Of a DNA stretch of 62,090 bases, positions 1-53,190 are shown one piece after another. The stretch comes from a virus. Its lineage: Duplodnaviria > Caudoviricetes. Made by a program: the position numbers and the translations under genes. The stretch is taken from positions 1-62,090 of IMG/VR virus record IMGVR_UViG_3300042527_000115; one strand, 5' to 3'. The notes below the pieces were generated by a model. That model saw only the letters and a list, made by a program, of their open reading frames with translations, searched no databases and was not told the DNA's origin. The stretch's first letter is position 1; each line of letters starts with the position of its first letter.

Positions 1-221
1 CGAGCCGGCCACGCCTGCTGACCTGAATGAGACCTCCCTTGAGGCGGCTGTTATTCAGATCGCTGCATGGACGGATGAGCGTGGTCTGCTGATTGCTGCC
101 AAGCCCAAGAAGCTGATTGTTCCGCCCGCACTGATGTTCGTGGCGACCCGTCTGCTTGAGACTGAGCTTCGCGTAGCTACGGCTGACAACGACATCAACG
201 CCATCAAGAACAATGGTTCTA
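1..221. repeat. Terminal direct repeat (circular assembly overlap), copy 1
   Basis: Identical to 61870-62090 except T94 vs C61963 (ATT/ATC, both Ile). Confidence 0.97.
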
Positions 222-20509: not shown

Positions 20510-21462
20510 CAATCGAGAAGACCTATGTTGCACCAGCGCTACCGTATGCACCAGTTACGGAGTTCAATGCCACATTCATGGACGGGTACAGCCGTATCCT
20601 GCGCCTGTACTTCAACCTCAATGACAACCTAATCGACCAGATTCTGGAGCTGCTCAATAACGGCGGCTACTTCCCAGAGCTTAACGCCGGGGAGTTCAAT
20701 GGGGGTAACTTTAACGGTGATACGGCCAACCTAGACCTGGTCAATGCCGGGCAAGTAGTGGCGGCTCTTGCCTACCTGCAAACCTTGTACGCCGGGGGAG
20801 TCCAGGCTCAAGACGTATTGGCTAACAATGTGACCGGCTCAAACGTAAACGGCAGCTTGTTTACCGGATCTGGCAGACAGCTAAATTTCCCCCATATTGG
20901 CGCTAGCGGCAACGCTGATCAGTACGCCACAGCAAACGACACGCCAACCATCGTTCAGTGGGATACCGCAGACGAAATATTAGGGTTTACCCTTAACAAT
21001 GACTATACAGCCACCCCTACTTACAACGGGGTGTACAAGATTACTTACGGTCTTCAGTTTGCTAATACTGACAACGCTGCTCACGATGTAGTTATTTGGA
21101 TAAGAGTTAATGGAACGGATGTAGTCAAGTCGGCGGTCAAGTACACCTTGCCAGCTAGAAAAAGCGCAGGAGTTCCGTCTTATCTCTTGGCGGGATCAAC
21201 AATTGTTTTTGATATTCAGGCTGGGCAGTCGGTGGGGTTGTGGTGGGCAACCGATAAGGCATACAGCACGACTGGCCCGGTAGATGGGGTCTACATAGAA
21301 TATCTCCCAGCTCAAACCACTCCATACGCACATCCAGCTGTTCCGGCTTCAATTGGAGATATTTCCTATGTATCTGCACCATTCCCGCCGAAAACTCAGG
21401 TGGCCCTGGTAGGGGTAGCTGGAGTCGGTGCTGTCGGTTCTGTGTCCATATTGGTCTATTGA
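20506..21462 (+). CDS. Tail-associated structural protein
   Basis: RILRLYFN N-terminus; C-terminal beta-sandwich (GVYKITYGLQ...WIRVNG). Confidence 0.6.
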   Translation: MTIEKTYVAPALPYAPVTEFNATFMDGYSRILRLYFNLNDNLIDQILELLNNGGYFPELNAGEFNGGNFNGDTANLDLVNAGQVVAALAYLQTLYAGGVQAQDVLANNVTGSNVNGSLFTGSGRQLNFPHIGASGNADQYATANDTPTIVQWDTADEILGFTLNNDYTATPTYNGVYKITYGLQFANTDNAAHDVVIWIRVNGTDVVKSAVKYTLPARKSAGVPSYLLAGSTIVFDIQAGQSVGLWWATDKAYSTTGPVDGVYIEYLPAQTTPYAHPAVPASIGDISYVSAPFPPKTQVALVGVAGVGAVGSVSILVY

Positions 21463-21487
21463 CTCGTACATGACACAGAGCTATAAT
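21459..21487 (+). promoter_or_regulatory. Sigma70-type promoter
   Basis: TTGACT-17 nt-TATAAT. Confidence 0.7.
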
Positions 21488-33666: not shown

Positions 33667-33695
33667 TTGACATGATATTTCTTTGGGTCCAAAAT
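33667..33695 (+). promoter_or_regulatory. Sigma70-type promoter of the recombination operon
   Basis: TTGACA-17 nt-CAAAAT. Confidence 0.5.
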
Positions 33696-33721
33696 TCAAT
33701 TGTCTACTGCTAGGAGTAAAA

Positions 33722-39887: not shown

Positions 39888-40519
39888 ACTTTGTATGCCC
39901 ACTCCCCCCGGTCAAGGTCTGGGTTCGGCCTGAGTATCTCTATGACTTTACCTGCCCATTCGATACGCCGCTGGTCAAGGGCATCTGGGTTAGCGTCAAG
40001 GCTATCCGTGGCGAGGCGTTCAGGTTTGAGACCTATCTCCCTGATTACGGCGCTCTGTACGACAAGCTACCGATCCACGCCTTTTGCTGGGCGCCGATCC
40101 ATGATGAGCTGCCGCTCGATGTCCTCCAGATCTGGGATGCGCTGAGCTATTACGTTACCGTGGTGGAGAAGCCTTTCCTCAAAGGTCTTCGGGCTGAGTT
40201 CTTTGGCAAGGACCGCCAGACCCATGATGGTGAGTACATGTTTACCCTGGATACATGTAACCCAGACCCCAGGATTCCAGACTTCACCCTGTCTGAGACC
40301 ATTGATGAGCATAAGAGCTACAACCTTTTGAAGCTGGACAATGGCCAGTTTGCCCTCCAGCCCAATAACCGCTGCCGGTTCTTTGACCCAGCCTTTAATC
40401 CAGATGTTATGAAGAAACCGGACTTCAGGGTGGCTACCAAGAAATACCGGGTCGAGCAGTTTGCCAAGTGGCGCCTGGGAGATACTGAGACTTTTGATTA
40501 CGATGGGAGGGGAGAATGA
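39884..40519 (+). CDS. Conserved hypothetical phage protein
   Basis: TTG start with AAGGAG RBS; GALYDKLP, EHKS, NGQFALQPNNR motifs. Confidence 0.6.
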   Translation: MNFVCPLPPVKVWVRPEYLYDFTCPFDTPLVKGIWVSVKAIRGEAFRFETYLPDYGALYDKLPIHAFCWAPIHDELPLDVLQIWDALSYYVTVVEKPFLKGLRAEFFGKDRQTHDGEYMFTLDTCNPDPRIPDFTLSETIDEHKSYNLLKLDNGQFALQPNNRCRFFDPAFNPDVMKKPDFRVATKKYRVEQFAKWRLGDTETFDYDGRGE

Positions 40520-40734
40520 ACTATCAAGATAGGCTGGCCAAGGGTGTGGCTGAGCTACAGAAATACCAAAGCACCGCCGGGGAGGTGGTGCAGGTCGAGG
40601 TCGGCCATGACGATGACTGCGGGGTCTTTGATAAGCGGGACTGCACCTGCATCCCGGATATTTACCTGAAGGCCGGGGACAGGACTTGGAAGATCGACCA
40701 GGAGGGCGCCCCTATTTTGTTGACAGTTAACTAG
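40516..40734 (+). CDS. Small Cys-containing protein
   Basis: HDDDC...CTCIPD. Confidence 0.55.
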   Translation: MNYQDRLAKGVAELQKYQSTAGEVVQVEVGHDDDCGVFDKRDCTCIPDIYLKAGDRTWKIDQEGAPILLTVN

Positions 40735-40857
40735 GCAGGGTGTATAACCCGCCTAGATTGCGACTCTCCTCGCGGTCACCATGAAACCTCCTAGCAGTGG
40801 TCCATTCATGGCACCTTCAGTGGTAACCCCCGGCCTAGACACCCGGGGGTTTTTTTA
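40720..40857 (+). ncRNA. Candidate ~100-nt antisense sRNA with promoter and terminator
   Basis: TTGACA-17-TATAAC (40720-40748); two hairpins carrying CTCTCC and ACCTCCT; terminator ACCCCCGG..CCGGGGGT-T6 (40826-40857). Confidence 0.6.
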
Positions 40858-40991
40858 TGGCCGGCCGGGTGTAGGATGGAATCGGAGGGGGTAACAACAG
40901 GATTTGAGGCAACGTGGGTTCGGTTGTTGTACACACCCCCCTCCACCCCTTGCGGAACTTTCCTGGACTGTGATAGTCTTCTACTTGTCGG

Positions 40992-41117
40992 TTGACACCC
41001 GGCGTTTGGCGGTTACTAGGTAGCAACAGAACCCTTTAGTGGGGGCTTGTAGTCATCGTTTGGTAACCGCCCGATGCTGGCCTGTCAAGCCCAAGTCTCC
41101 ACTAAAGGGTTTTTTTA
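40992..41117 (+). promoter_or_regulatory. Interleaved long-stem RNA element (pseudoknot or switch) ending in a U-tract
   Basis: 41030-41049 pairs with 41092-41111 (20 bp, 2 G-U); 40992-41018 pairs with 41061-41088. Confidence 0.6.
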
Positions 41118-41177
41118 TGGGCGCTTGGGATCTGACCCGTAGGTGGGCGGTTCCTGCTGAATCATCGGAGCCTAGTC

Positions 41178-41408
41178 ATGCCGATTGTTTATTCCCGCAA
41201 ATACCTGCCAATGAATGGCCGGTTCTACTGCGTGACTAACCAAGAGCAACATGACCTGGCTAAAAAATTCCCCGGATGTGAGGTGGAATGGTGTCTGAAG
41301 GAGCTGGAGTCTTATCTGGTAGCCAACCCAGAGTCCCAGCAAAGATCAGCCACTAAGACCAAGAATCTCATTCGGATGTGGTTTTCCGGTGCGTCCGCGA
41401 CACGGTAG
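41178..41408 (+). CDS. Small protein resembling the C-terminal domain of phage replication initiators
   Basis: LP.NG..Y.VT......L...FP...V...L......L.ANP...........I..W pattern; GGAG RBS. Confidence 0.45.
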   Translation: MPIVYSRKYLPMNGRFYCVTNQEQHDLAKKFPGCEVEWCLKELESYLVANPESQQRSATKTKNLIRMWFSGASATR

Positions 41409-41668
41409 TTGATGGCTTGAATCGGCTGAATCGCAAGAAAGACACCTAGCGGTTACACCCCCCGTTTAGGTACCAGCCTGTCAGCGAGGGACTGGTGTAG
41501 CCAGGAGGTAAGTGGTGGGACAAGACTCCTGGTGAATGAATCGCTGCCCCCTGGGTTTGCTGGGTTGGCCCCTTGAGTGGCCCTCCGGGCAGGGTAAGAG
41601 CTTCGGCTTCCACCCCTTGGGGATAGAGTAATCTGCACGTATTACATGATTGGAAAGGTAGTCATCTG

Positions 41669-42454
41669 ATGAGAGACCCGTACAGGATTACAGAACCTAC
41701 GGTGATATCGTTCTCGGGAGGAAGAACGTCGGCATACATGCTGCACAGGGTTATGCAATCTAATGACGGACTACCAGAGGACGCAATAGTTTGTTTCGCT
41801 AACACTGGCAAGGAAGAACAAGCAACCTTAGACTTCGTGCATGAGTGTGAAACAAAGTGGAATGCACACATTGTGTGGCTGGAATATCGGTCAGACAAAC
41901 CAAGATTTGAGGTGGTCACATACGAGACAGCTTCTCGGAATGGAGAACCATTTGAGATGCTTATTGAAAAGAAGAACTACCTACCAAACATGGTGGCGAG
42001 GTTCTGCACTCAGGAGCTAAAGGTGCTGGCTATCGATCGGTATTTAAAATCGATTGGATTAGATGAGTACATTACTTTCGTGGGAGTCAGAGCCGATGAG
42101 CCTAGGCGGGTTGCAAAGATCCGTACTCAGGGGGATAAGTTTTGCCCATTAGCTGATGATGGAATAACCGAGAAAATTGTTTGGGATTTCTGGAACAAGA
42201 ATGAGTTTGACCTGAAACTTCCAAAGGTATCAGGAGCTTCAAATTGTGATTTGTGTTTTTTAAAGGGCGCTGGAATTATCGGAGGTTTAATTTCAGAGAA
42301 GCCTGAGAGGGCGGTTTGGTGGGCGAAGATGGAAGAAAAGATTGGTGCCACCTTCAGACCAGACAGACCGTCGTATAAAGAGATGGCAAAGTTTCATGCC
42401 AACCAGGGAAGCTTGTTTGGTGATGAATCTGTTGCTTGCTTTTGTGGGGACTAA
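41669..42454 (+). CDS. PAPS reductase-family protein
   Basis: ISFSGGRTS PP-loop, FANTGKE, RFCTQELK, GVRADE, NCDLCFLK. Confidence 0.85.
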   Translation: MRDPYRITEPTVISFSGGRTSAYMLHRVMQSNDGLPEDAIVCFANTGKEEQATLDFVHECETKWNAHIVWLEYRSDKPRFEVVTYETASRNGEPFEMLIEKKNYLPNMVARFCTQELKVLAIDRYLKSIGLDEYITFVGVRADEPRRVAKIRTQGDKFCPLADDGITEKIVWDFWNKNEFDLKLPKVSGASNCDLCFLKGAGIIGGLISEKPERAVWWAKMEEKIGATFRPDRPSYKEMAKFHANQGSLFGDESVACFCGD

Positions 42455-45521: not shown

Positions 45522-46341
45522 AGACTTTGCCCGCAGCCACGGGCTGATTATCAACGGCGTCATTCCAGGCAAATGGATCGCCACGCCAACCGAAGATCAC
45601 CCAAGGAAAAGGAACGGACGCTATAAGTACATGGGAGACCATGGCTGGGTTCAGAACTGGGCAACCATGCAGAAGGCTGTGCTGTGGAAATCTGACCGTC
45701 CACAAAGGCTCTCACCGTCTATCTATCAAGCCGTGCGTAACTCTGACAAAGAGCGGGAAGACATGGCCAAGAAAGCCGCGGCTCGGGCTGGCTGGATCTT
45801 GCATAACTCATTTAACGCCCCGCATCCATACATGGACAAGAAGGGATTCCCGGAGGAGCCGACCAAGGTTTGGACAGATGACGACGGCAAGCGCCTGTTA
45901 GTTGTGCCGATGCGGATCAACAACGTGCTGGTTGGCGCTCAACTCATCGATGAAGAGGGGGGTAAGAAGTTCCTGAAGGGACAGCGTTCCAAAGGCGCAT
46001 CCTTCACCATGGACGCAAAAGGACTGCCGATCTTCTGCGAGGGGTACGCCACGGGCCTCAGTATCAGAGCCGTAATGAAGCTCGTAAATATCCGCTATCA
46101 GATCCATGTGTGCTTTAGCGCAGGAAACATACAGGAGATATCTCGGAGCATCCCCGGCGGGATAATCGTCGCTGACAACGATGCAAGCGGAACGGGAGAA
46201 AAGGCCGCGCTTGAAACAGGCAAGCCTTACTGGATCTCCCCCACAACTGGGGAGGATTTCAACGATTTTCATCAGCGCGTTGGTGACTTCAAAGCCAGCC
46301 AATCCCTTAAATCATTAATCATTAAAGCTCAGTCTCAGTAG
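45511..46341 (+). CDS. TOPRIM-domain primase
   Basis: CEGYATG, FSAGN, IVADND, DFND. Confidence 0.85.
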   Translation: MRFEDFARSHGLIINGVIPGKWIATPTEDHPRKRNGRYKYMGDHGWVQNWATMQKAVLWKSDRPQRLSPSIYQAVRNSDKEREDMAKKAAARAGWILHNSFNAPHPYMDKKGFPEEPTKVWTDDDGKRLLVVPMRINNVLVGAQLIDEEGGKKFLKGQRSKGASFTMDAKGLPIFCEGYATGLSIRAVMKLVNIRYQIHVCFSAGNIQEISRSIPGGIIVADNDASGTGEKAALETGKPYWISPTTGEDFNDFHQRVGDFKASQSLKSLIIKAQSQ

Positions 46342-46590
46342 CCTGATGAACTTAGCTTCCATCTGACGGACCCTTTCCTTGGACAGGCCGTAAAGATTGC
46401 CTGCCTCGGAGAGGGTGCCGCCTTCTGCCCGCTTCTTCAAGATAGCCCAATACTTTTCCCGATTGTCTGGTGCCACCTTCTTAAGCAGCTTATCGAAGTC
46501 TTCCCGCGAGGGAAAGTCCACCAGTCTATACGGCATATTGGGATCACCCGTTTGAATCGGGACTCGCCCGCCTGCATCTTTCAAATTCAC
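46315..46590 (-). CDS. Sigma70 region-4-like HTH protein
   Basis: TLSEAGNLYGLSKERVRQME; AAGGAG RBS right after the last array anchor. Confidence 0.7.
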   Translation of the reverse strand: MNLKDAGGRVPIQTGDPNMPYRLVDFPSREDFDKLLKKVAPDNREKYWAILKKRAEGGTLSEAGNLYGLSKERVRQMEAKFIRLLRLSFND

Positions 46591-50405: not shown

Positions 50406-50429
50406 TTTTAAAACCTCCTAGCAATTGAA

Positions 50430-50459
50430 AGGATATTGAAAGTCAATATTGTTTGTCAA
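50430..50459 (-). promoter_or_regulatory. Sigma70-type promoter overlapped by TTGA-N3-TCAA sites
   Basis: TTGACA-18 nt-TATCCT on - strand. Confidence 0.6.
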
Positions 50460-51586: not shown

Positions 51587-53190
51587 TATTTGCCCCCTTT
51601 AGTGATTTCAAAAACAACGGATCGCATTAGGTCCAGCGCATCGGGCCACGCGTGGCCGTTCGCCTTTAATCGATCGAAGTACGGCCGCGCAGCTGATTCC
51701 ATCGCGCGGGCGTCCAGCTTTCCCGCGGCCAGTACCGGCGCGACCGCATCGCGGAATTGCATCAGGATCACCGCGTCGGAATTTTCAAGTTTGCTCATAA
51801 TTTCCCCTCGACGGATTCCCATGCATCGATTAAAGCCCGCGAGACCTTGTGATAATTGGAATCTTCCAAAGCTGCGAGACAGATTAAAAAAACGTCTCGC
51901 CCGTCCCAGTCGGTAGACGCGGCAAGCGATAGCCCTAAATTTAAGATTTTCTGATCGTCCATCATTGCGCCCCCGAATAAGTGTCATATCCGCGGACCTT
52001 TGACCGCCGTTCACGGGCTACGCGCTCGCGATACTTTGGGGGGAATCCGAAACATTCTAAAAAAGCTTTTTGAAATTTCGACGCGTCGCAATCTTCTTCG
52101 AGATATGCGAAACCGTCGCGCTCATATGAGTAGCGCGAAATTTCTCGCGAGATCAGAAGATCAGCCAAAAGGCGCTTTGGTACTTTGACCCAGCCGTGGC
52201 CGGGATCGGAAATAAAATCGAACGTTTTTTGCATTGTGTAACCCCTTGAAAAAACCCCGGGGAAATCCCCCGGGGAATTGATTAATCGAGACGGGATCCC
52301 GCGAAGGCGTCGATTCCCGCAGCCCGCAGGGTTTCCGCGTACGCGGCCGCGAAGGCGCTTTTCCGTTCGACGGATTGTCCGAATTCGGAAACCCAGTATT
52401 GGATCCCGCCACCATAAGCTGACCGCATCAGGCCCGTTTTTTTCGCCCATATCCCGAAGCTGGAATTCGCAGGCTTTACCGTGACCCACGCGAACCCGCA
52501 GGCTCCATCGTCGACGCGCCAAAGCTGGCCGCGTAATTCGTCGATTACGTGCATCGGGACGGGCGAAGCTTCAATTCCCGCCTGAATCCCGGCTTCGCGG
52601 GCGCGATCCGCTAAAGCTTGAAATTCCGCGTAACGGCTAGCGCGGGCGTTTTTTTCAGCGCTGATTTTTTCTTTAAGTGTCGCGTATTGCATGATTCGAT
52701 TCCCTTTCATGTATTTAATGATTCGCAAAGCTTCGGACGGAAAGCCCGAAGGATTCCAGCCCCTGAGATTTCACGTCGATCGAGTAACCTAGGGCTTCGA
52801 TTTCGCGCAGGCTGGCCGGGGTTAGCGTTTTCGTCCCTGCGATCCGGGCAAAGCTTTTTGAAGCTTCGCAGGCGGGATACACGACCCGCGAACCGTAGAC
52901 GTCTTTTATTTCGACAATGATTGTTTTCATTATTCCCCCCGGGCTTTATTGATTGCAGCTTGAACGATCGCGGCCGTTTCCGCGGGCATTTCGACGTTAC
53001 CGTCGAAGGCGACGAATTCGAGGGCTGCGAGTAGATCCGGCGCAGCTGCGATAAGGCGGGCGTCAGCTGGCCGGCGCGTTTCCGAGTAGACAATTTCCCC
53101 GACTGCATCGCGGCCGGAATTGATCAGATAGACGCGTGGGCTTATACCGTCTGCGATATTCCACGGTCCGGGCGTGTAATTAGATTTCAT
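51586..53190 (-). other. Small early ORFs (51586-51798, 51795-51965, 51962-52234, 52282-52692, 52715-52930, 52930-53190)
   Basis: Coupled starts/stops; DPGHGW, CGFAWV, TPGPW...ARLIAAAPDLL, AALEDSNYH phage motifs. Confidence 0.6.
52249..52276 (-). terminator. Rho-independent terminator
   Basis: CCCCGGGG-GATTT-CCCCGGGG-TTTTTT on - strand. Confidence 0.65.

Follow-up and report, generated by a model that had tools for sequence, protein, structure and literature searches.

A candidate family of trans-acting small RNAs predicted to occlude the Shine-Dalgarno sequences of early mRNAs in uncultured freshwater phages

Introduction

The c4 antisense RNA is cut from the leader of the operon that it controls, and the CI RNA of satellite phage P4 is related to it. 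According to a 2025 review of phage small RNAs (sRNAs), c4 of P1 and P7 is made by the phage, carries loops complementary to the regions around the ribosome-binding sites (RBSs) of phage genes, blocks translation and can replace a protein repressor, while sar of P22 blocks initiation at the ant RBS and VpdS of VP882 acts in trans on both phage and host messenger RNAs (mRNAs) (PMC12197685). The phage sRNAs treated there are mostly cis-antisense RNAs with one target or are aimed at host genes, and none is a trans-encoded phage sRNA with a tagged early regulon, although the supplementary tables of that review might list more (PMC12197685). Bacterial counterparts, as described for the alpha-r14/NfeR1 sRNAs, consist of three hairpins, each with an identical unpaired CCUCCUCCC motif, and control a regulon of many mRNAs by RBS occlusion (PMC10746234), whereas in T4 a single phage product, RegA, is reported to shut off several early mRNAs by occupying their ribosome-binding regions (PMC3014915). 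Here we analyze an sRNA predicted in the 62,090-bp IMG/VR virus record IMGVR_UViG_3300042527_000115 (the window, meaning this whole stretch of DNA), a complete-looking phage genome contained in sequencing runs labeled as lake water metagenomes. Its sequence and the related loci are best read as a new sRNA family, encoded by phages and acting in trans, that would occlude the Shine-Dalgarno sequences (SDs) of early mRNAs, and a full-text literature search returned no description of such a family.

Results

The locus was first noticed in an initial annotation made from the window sequence alone, which described a promoter, about 100 nucleotides (nt) without a long open reading frame (ORF), an intrinsic terminator and two hairpins, and all of these elements, including the hairpin coordinates, were confirmed in the sequence (Table 1). 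Its two claims of complementarity for hairpin 2 were likewise borne out, and both exceed chance. Positions 40784-40796 of the sRNA are perfectly antisense over 13 nt (17 nt with two G:U pairs) to 50411-50423 on the minus strand, a site that reads TGCTAGGAGGTTT and lies 5 nt before ATG 50405 of a 54-amino-acid (aa) ORF, the leading gene of a leftward operon. Positions 40788-40798 are perfectly antisense over 11 nt (13 nt with one G:U pair) to 33706-33716 on the plus strand, which reads ACTGCTAGGAG and lies 5 nt before ATG 33722 of the PD-(D/E)XK exonuclease gene that leads the rightward recombination operon. The genome contains just three copies of the 9-mer TGCTAGGAG, one in the sRNA and one in each target, against 0.38 copies expected, and CTAG is under-represented in the window, with an observed-to-expected ratio (O/E) of 0.48. 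When the RNA body was dinucleotide-shuffled and compared with the 120 start regions, a match of at least 13 nt arose in 1 of 1000 shuffles, and matches of 13 and 11 nt together in none of 1000; with CCTCCT held fixed and the flanks randomized, a match of at least 13 nt appeared in 1 of 3000 trials. Duplex energies computed for loop 2 ranked the two targets first and second among the 120 start regions (-27.2 and -23.8), with the next best region at -20.5 and a mean of -11.2.

Relatives of the sRNA were sought with two covariance models. The first, R1, was built from the single window sequence and run over 80 loci around exonuclease homologues, giving 15 matches, all on the exonuclease strand and 3-10.6 kb downstream of the exonuclease gene. 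The second, R2, was built from eight members and scored against 95 sources, giving 20 matches at E <= 5. Fifteen of them lay in exonuclease-oriented loci, where the strand was again always that of the exonuclease and the distance downstream was 3.3-10.6 kb. Two other R2 matches, in L012 and L013 (15 bits, opposite strand, differently oriented loci), look like terminators. Among the 60 distinct exonuclease loci, 24 reach at least 9 kb downstream, and R2 matched 11 of these 24 at E < 0.05 and 15 at E < 5. Further members were found by a terminator pattern search (L124 and L125), in a metagenome-assembled genome (MAG) contig (L128, 55.9 bits) and upstream of the structured element that follows the sRNA locus (L156 with 65.9 bits, L154 with 51.6 bits, and others). 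Every member has a promoter, either TTGACA-15..18-TATAAC/TATAGT/TATATT/TATAAT or, in a second subfamily, TGCTATATT, and every member ends with a terminator. Most contain two or three C/U-rich, anti-SD-like stretches (among them CCUCCU, CACCUCCU and CUCUCUCCUCC) together with the word CCUAGCAG or a variant of it.

In a model-fitted alignment of 17 sequences, 91.6% of stem cells were paired, compared with 67.5% after shuffling and 36-51% when the partner was slid, and 22 of the 26 stem pairs had changed on both sides, with compensatory changes in 8 of 8 pairs of hairpin 1. The relative L046, whose exonuclease is 97% identical to that of the window, keeps a 26-nt block at the seed unchanged, while hairpin 1 and the third region carry substitutions and indels. 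RNAalifold applied to a plain MAFFT alignment of six of the sRNAs returned the terminator alone, the hairpins being mis-aligned. When relatives were gathered through the PAPS-reductase-like gene or the phrog_3704 gene, the neighborhood was not kept and R1 found nothing convincing (best score 10.8 bits).

Ribosome-binding sites of the relatives carry the counterpart of the seed. Where the exonuclease gene stands right behind a promoter, its RBS is nearly always GCTAGGAG or a close variant, despite a differing leader, and where another gene leads the exonuclease operon, that gene bears the site instead (L083, L096, L107, L089 and L047). In the whole records of five relatives, GCTAGGAG occurs 27 times, compared with 3 times for the reversed control. 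The sites lie 5-9 nt upstream of start codons, including those of internal genes distant from promoters: in G002, five consecutive small genes of an opposite-strand operon each have (C)CGCTAGGAGA 5-9 nt before the ATG, and in G005 four small genes have the (C)CGCTAGGAGA tag before the ATG. Some relatives have five to seven tagged RBSs, and in 7 of 13 relatives a site complementary to the seed falls at the start of the ParB-like gene. The window regulon, by comparison, is reduced to the two operon-leading genes.

Covariation between sRNA and targets in related genomes, which the initial annotation had named as a check on its proposal, was detected in several ways. Across 11 loci, the longest perfect match of an sRNA to its own exonuclease start region averaged 9.73 nt, compared with 7.49 nt for permuted pairs (0/20000 permutations), and across 11 phages the mean duplex energy of own pairs was -25.5, compared with -21.9 (1/20000). 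When all tagged start regions were counted, the base adjoining GCUAGGAG was found to covary with the target base (Fisher p = 2.5e-5): where the sRNA has A after CCUAGC, the target base before GCUAGGA is U in 19 cases, C in 1 and A in 2, and where it has G, the target base is C in 9 cases and U, which is wobble-compatible, in 2. Thus the sRNAs of the window, L046, L069, L073, L088, L099 and L107, with ...CCUAGCAG, are matched by targets with UGCUAGGAG, and those of L051 and L047, with ...CCUAGCGG, by targets with CGCUAGGAG. In two further variants, UGGCAGUGG of L095 pairs with CCACUGCCA at two start regions and CCUCACAGU of L098 pairs with ACUGUGAGG. A match extends to 14 nt in L099 and to 18 nt in L088, where it runs over the start codon, and bipartite matches of 10+12 nt and 9+12 nt were seen in L096 and L097, whose 12-nt second blocks are unrelated to each other and yet are each complementary to their own sRNA. 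Comparison of the relatives thus shows a conserved structured RNA family whose seed and targets co-evolve, and it strongly supports base pairing of the sRNA with early leaders as the probable mode of recognition.

Several observations in the relatives stand beside this family. In L140, L148, L150, L151, L158, L166, L180 and L197, short units located right after a gene end and upstream of the structured element contain AGCAGTTGC and TCTCC words followed by a terminator; these may be shorter, more distant relatives of the sRNA that the model underscores or misses. Members of the second subfamily (L097 16636-16690, L096 13202-13250, L083 8882-8930, L107 16254-16300) have another predicted transcript that starts 40-140 nt past the sRNA terminator, opens with 20-25 nt complementary to the sRNA and continues into a hairpin whose stems covary and whose loop, CUGAAACAA(U/C), is conserved. 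As no start codon is near, the partner of the sRNA in this case may be another non-coding RNA. In L133 (G002:C1:7239-9529) and L135 (G005:C1:17188-20429), every gene in the runs of small early genes has a G/C-rich hairpin in front of it, followed by (C)CGCTAGGAGA or CTGCTAGGAG 5-9 nt before the ATG; judged by their sequence, we read these runs as a multi-gene tagged regulon.

The anatomy of the sRNA in the window is consistent with a short, structured transcript. Its -35 box overlaps the final codons of the upstream 72-aa ORF, and A40755 is the likely transcription start site. The fold of the 105-nt RNA has a minimum free energy of -39 kcal/mol (z -3.3), which was equaled in 1 of 200 shuffles. 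The centroid loop of hairpin 2 is UCCUAGCAGU (40789-40798), and in the predicted ensemble the mean unpaired probability is 0.80 for the seed in the window, compared with 0.43 over the whole RNA; the motif could be located in 11 members, and in 8 of them the seed value is 0.66 or higher. The C/U-rich motifs of the RNA are CUCUCC, CCUCCUAGC and CACCUUC. The sole ORF on the same strand, 40781-40894, has no SD and reads through the terminator, and it is not conserved, since indels break its frame in L046 and its ATG is missing in L051. A generic scan missed the promoter and terminator of the sRNA because of its fixed rules, which ask for T at position 6 of the -10 box and a terminator loop of at most 8 nt. 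No family was matched by Rfam at the gathering score over the whole window, and at E <= 10 over 40500-41800 only sub-threshold look-alikes were returned.

Table 1. Coordinates of the predicted sRNA, its parts, its putative targets and their promoter-like sites in the window
Feature	Position	Strand	Description
Predicted sigma-70-type sRNA promoter	40720..40748	+	TTGACA 40720-40725, 17-nt spacer, TATAAC 40743-40748
Predicted sRNA, ~100 nt	40755..40856	+	Three hairpins plus intrinsic terminator; no conserved ORF
Hairpin 1	40756..40777	+	From fold; C/U-rich loop CUCUCC at 40764-40769
Hairpin 2, seed-bearing	40779..40811	+	From fold; pairs covary in the family alignment
Seed AAACCUCCUAGCAGU	40784..40798	+	Conserved core CCUAGCAG predicted mostly unpaired
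Rho-independent terminator	40825..40856	+	9-bp stem (hairpin 40825-40851), 9-nt loop, T7 at 40850-40856; conserved in relatives
Recombination operon promoter-like site	33667..33695	+	TTGACA-17-CAAAAT
Target 1, 5' leader and SD of exonuclease gene	33704..33716	+	11 nt perfect, 13 with one G:U
Leftward operon promoter-like site	50430..50459	-	TTGACA-18-TATCCT
Target 2, 5' leader and SD of 54-aa ORF	50409..50425	-	13 nt perfect, 17 with two G:U

The sRNA and its two targets share a promoter class. A scan of the whole genome for TTGAC(A/G/T)-16..18-(T/C)ANNN(T/C), in which the -10 box had to match at 4 or more of its 6 positions, returned four sites. Three of these have a perfect TTGACA, and they are the promoters of the sRNA and of its two targets. 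The fourth strong promoter-like site, TTGACT-17-TATAAT at 21459-21487 (+), lies in a short gap within the structural gene block. On the leftward transcript the target site starts at about +1, and on the recombination transcript at about +3 to +5, and because both start so near +1 of leaders of 18-25 nt, the RNA would cover practically the entire leader.

Gene content was read from PHROG and Pfam scans of 84 ORFs and includes structural and packaging genes. The recombination operon continues from the exonuclease through Erf and many small genes to 40734 and is followed by about 930 nt of non-coding sequence, beyond which lie a PAPS-reductase-like gene and genes for a small helix-turn-helix protein, a ParB-like protein, a helicase and a primase. 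The leftward operon runs from 50405 down to the gene of a small Sigma70_r4-like protein. This last gene (46315-46590, minus strand) encodes 91 aa with a Sigma-70 region 4 domain (27.4 bits; cut-off 24.1), and from its sequence the protein is a candidate transcription factor for later phage genes. Neither an integrase nor a CI-like repressor was found among the 84 ORFs in the PHROG scans, in agreement with the initial annotation, and a scan of the window for transfer RNA and transfer-messenger RNA genes gave none. No close cultured relative was identified among 50,697 phage records, in which the best exonuclease identity was 38%, and a blastn search with 40300-41700 against the same records gave 0 matches. 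A contig scan for the host returned five MAG contigs with conflicting labels, and no host was assigned. No RNA run is listed among the sequencing runs that contain the locus, and the one run guessed to be RNA, which covers 41050-41294 only, is probably DNA.

The non-coding stretch that contains the sRNA holds further elements. Right after the sRNA terminator, 40858-40990 (+) contains a G/C-rich inverted repeat, GGAGGGGGT...ACCCCCCTCC, which is 89-95% conserved in L046 and L010. A second unit at 40993-41118 (+) consists of TTGACA, a long, nearly perfect hairpin (z -5.65) and a T7 end; it is missing from the two closest relatives, and in many other contigs the structured element has a similar unit of a long hairpin and a T-run some 100 nt upstream. 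That structured element, which separates the sRNA from the replication genes and spans about 230 nt (41416-41650, plus strand), is 72-92% identical in at least 12 relatives, contains invariant blocks such as CCAGCCTGTCAGCGAGGGACTGG and GAATGAATCGCTGCC, and has 35 predicted pairs, 23 of them with compensatory changes, with no Rfam match at E <= 10 in the region of 40500-41800. Its 21-nt core is present in at least 118 viral contigs, and among the core matches listed, 15 of 78 loci have an upstream R2 match in the same orientation. The element, placed before the replication genes, probably represents a structured RNA that has not been described or is linked to an origin. Positions 40949-41623 are 99.6% identical over 675 nt to L047 18070-18744, while the exonucleases of the two phages are only 81% identical, which points to recent exchange of the non-coding module together with a 76-aa ORF (41178-41408).

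Discussion

We consider it likely that this sRNA acts in trans to repress the translation of early genes, as a timed shut-off or as feedback. Transcription of this RNA of about 100 nt would start at a host-type (sigma-70) promoter of its own and stop at the intrinsic terminator. The exposed loop of hairpin 2 would nucleate pairing with the very short leaders of the other two TTGACA-promoter transcripts, and pairing would then spread into the flanking stem to form a duplex of 13-17 bp that covers the SD and reaches within a few bases of the start codon. With the SD covered by this duplex, the 30S subunit would be excluded and translation of the first gene turned off, and operon stability or downstream expression may drop through the loss of translation. 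The CUAG directly 5' of the SD would serve as an address that marks phage early mRNAs for the sRNA. Such a geometry, with a loop seed, a duplex across the SD and very short leaders, fits the canonical SD occlusion described for NfeR1 (PMC10746234) and for c4 RNA (PMC12197685). From SD occlusion we infer that the sign of the effect is repression, and a phage in which neither a repressor nor an integrase is recognizable would use it to shut off early genes at a set time or to exert feedback on them; an RNA switch for early genes is the most likely role. The original proposal of an RNA repressor has thus stood where it concerns pairing with early-operon RBSs, in view of the family, the covarying stems and seed and the exposed position of the seed, while its repressive action is deduced from the geometry.

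A number of points weigh against this proposal. No R2 match was found in 9 of the 24 well-covered relatives. The stem statistics come from a model-fitted alignment, which leans to the model, and that alignment includes one probable false positive, 52246-52343 (minus strand); this second R2 match in the window (23.5 bits) consists of the end of an ORF and a CCCCGGGG terminator and is no paralogue. The counts behind the co-variation are phylogenetically non-independent, the G type being represented by 2 of the 11 phages in the Fisher test, so that perhaps four or five independent events underlie them. The asymmetry of G:U over A:C around the duplex cores (45 versus 33) was not significant, and a version of this test with 8-nt seeds was swamped by chance sites. 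The extended duplexes partly require opening of the hairpin-2 stem, and the convincing targets in the window are two only. Both the promoter and the transcript of the sRNA are predicted ones. Loop 1 also adds less than had been claimed: AGGAGAG sites complementary to it are indeed present (34581, 42658, 43752, 49274 and 50250), but their 8 copies compare with 7.35 expected, which is the level of chance, and the pairing comprises 7 nt of SD core only. The link to replication that had been drawn from these sites is therefore not above chance in the window, even though the RBS of the ParB-like gene appears to be a true target of the seed in those 7 of 13 relatives.

The same shared word might instead be a DNA element, an operator or promoter-proximal protein site whose copies evolve in concert and of which the sRNA copy is merely inverted. 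Both targets in the window do lie immediately downstream of -10 boxes, from +1 to +15, all copies within a genome change together, as concerted operator evolution would also give, and the G:U versus A:C test does not discriminate. We nevertheless regard this as very unlikely, because most copies in the relatives sit at internal genes far from promoters and always 5-9 nt before a start codon, and because the sole inverted copy in each genome is the unpaired loop of a promoter-hairpin-terminator unit whose stems covary as RNA. Complementarity moreover enters target-specific flanks, to 18 nt or 10+12 nt, that differ between sister phages, and the word has no dyad symmetry beyond CTAG. Coincidence, in which a hairpin between genes contains an SD-like complement that fits two RBSs by accident, has the attraction that any CCUCC-containing RNA matches many RBS cores and that the loop-1 matches are no more frequent than expected; against the shuffle controls, the three-copy word and the conservation and co-variation in relatives, it is scarcely credible.

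Two further alternatives accept the RNA and differ on what it does. Pairing could be real and its outcome something other than repression, such as protection of the 5' end from decay or a reserve kept until the RNA is displaced, which would give stabilization or delayed activation. Pairing begins at or near +1 of both transcripts, where 5'-end-dependent decay starts, and the sign of an effect is not readable from sequence; the duplex, however, spans the whole SD and stops 5 nt before the start codon, the occlusion geometry of NfeR1 and c4, and there is no evident alternative structure for the RNA to open, so that we judge this outcome unlikely. Decidedly unlikely, in our view, is that host mRNAs are the main targets, with a multi-anti-SD RNA serving host takeover and the phage sites secondary, or that the unit is chiefly the terminator and 3' end of the upstream operon. 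The two or three C/U-rich, anti-SD-like stretches of the family do resemble those of bacterial multi-anti-SD sRNAs, to RNAs of which type the weak Rfam matches also point, and the unit directly follows the last ORF of the recombination operon. Yet the most conserved and co-varying part is the CUAG-containing flank that matches the phage's own leaders, built on a tetranucleotide that is scarce in the window, and not the complement of the SD, and a plain terminator needs neither a conserved promoter nor two covarying hairpins upstream.

A broader proposal can also be made, to which we assign slightly less than an even chance as a whole: a large clade of uncultured freshwater phages would run its early program by a self-contained RNA circuit, in which the sRNA reads a CUAG tag placed on the 5' side of the SD in up to seven early-gene leaders and the sRNA gene belongs to a conserved non-coding module with the structured element of about 230 nt. 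The circuit would be an RNA counterpart of T4 RegA and, being private to each lineage because tag and seed drift together, a possible basis of heteroimmunity among co-infecting relatives. The locus was found purely from sequence, in phages without a cultured relative; if it acts as proposed, it would be a phage sRNA, encoded in trans, whose regulon consists of early genes of the same phage, recognized via a short tag beside the SD. Natural variants of seed and target form a ready series of compensatory mutations for reporter tests, and a tag-seed pair could serve as an orthogonal translational switch. These findings also suggest that many environmental phages without recognizable repressors may rely on RNA-based circuits for timing or immunity.

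Compared with described systems, the locus has the features generally expected of a trans-encoded sRNA, namely its own promoter, a Rho-independent terminator, no conserved ORF, an accessible seed and co-varying targets. The initial comparison with P1 c4 and P4 CI RNA remains apt as logic: these too are phage RNAs of about 70-100 nt with loops complementary to RBS regions, and here loop 2 would pair over 13 and 11 nt across two SDs. It does not extend to family membership, since the Rfam C4 family had no match at the gathering score in the window or at E <= 10 in 40500-41800, and, unlike c4, the sRNA has its own TTGACA-17-TATAAC promoter and terminator, has targets 7 and 9.6 kb away on both strands and in several operons, and lies outside any antirepressor or immunity context, with no integrase or CI in 84 ORFs. 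With sar of P22, OOP of lambda and VpdS it shares the regulation of phage genes by an sRNA through pairing, although sar and OOP are antisense RNAs encoded in cis, each fully complementary to a single target, unlike the trans-acting sRNA proposed here, and the Rfam scans found no relation in sequence or structure to any of the three. RegA resembles it in purpose; there a protein recognizes RNA, whereas the putative repressor here is itself an RNA that would recognize its targets by base pairing. The closest matches in Rfam fall far below threshold, anti-hemB (RF02837) scoring 23.9 bits (E 0.0055) against 49.5, driven by the anti-SD loop and the terminator, and the Betaproteobacteria toxic sRNA (RF02278) 16.7 bits against 50. 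The likeness to alpha-r14/NfeR1 is one of architecture only, with three hairpins, unpaired C/U-rich anti-SD stretches and freely varying stems, and the CCUCCUCCC motif is absent from the sRNA. What would set it apart from multi-anti-SD sRNAs is that specificity comes from the CUAG-containing flank and not from the SD complement alone, and that a phage encodes the RNA and directs it against early genes of its own.

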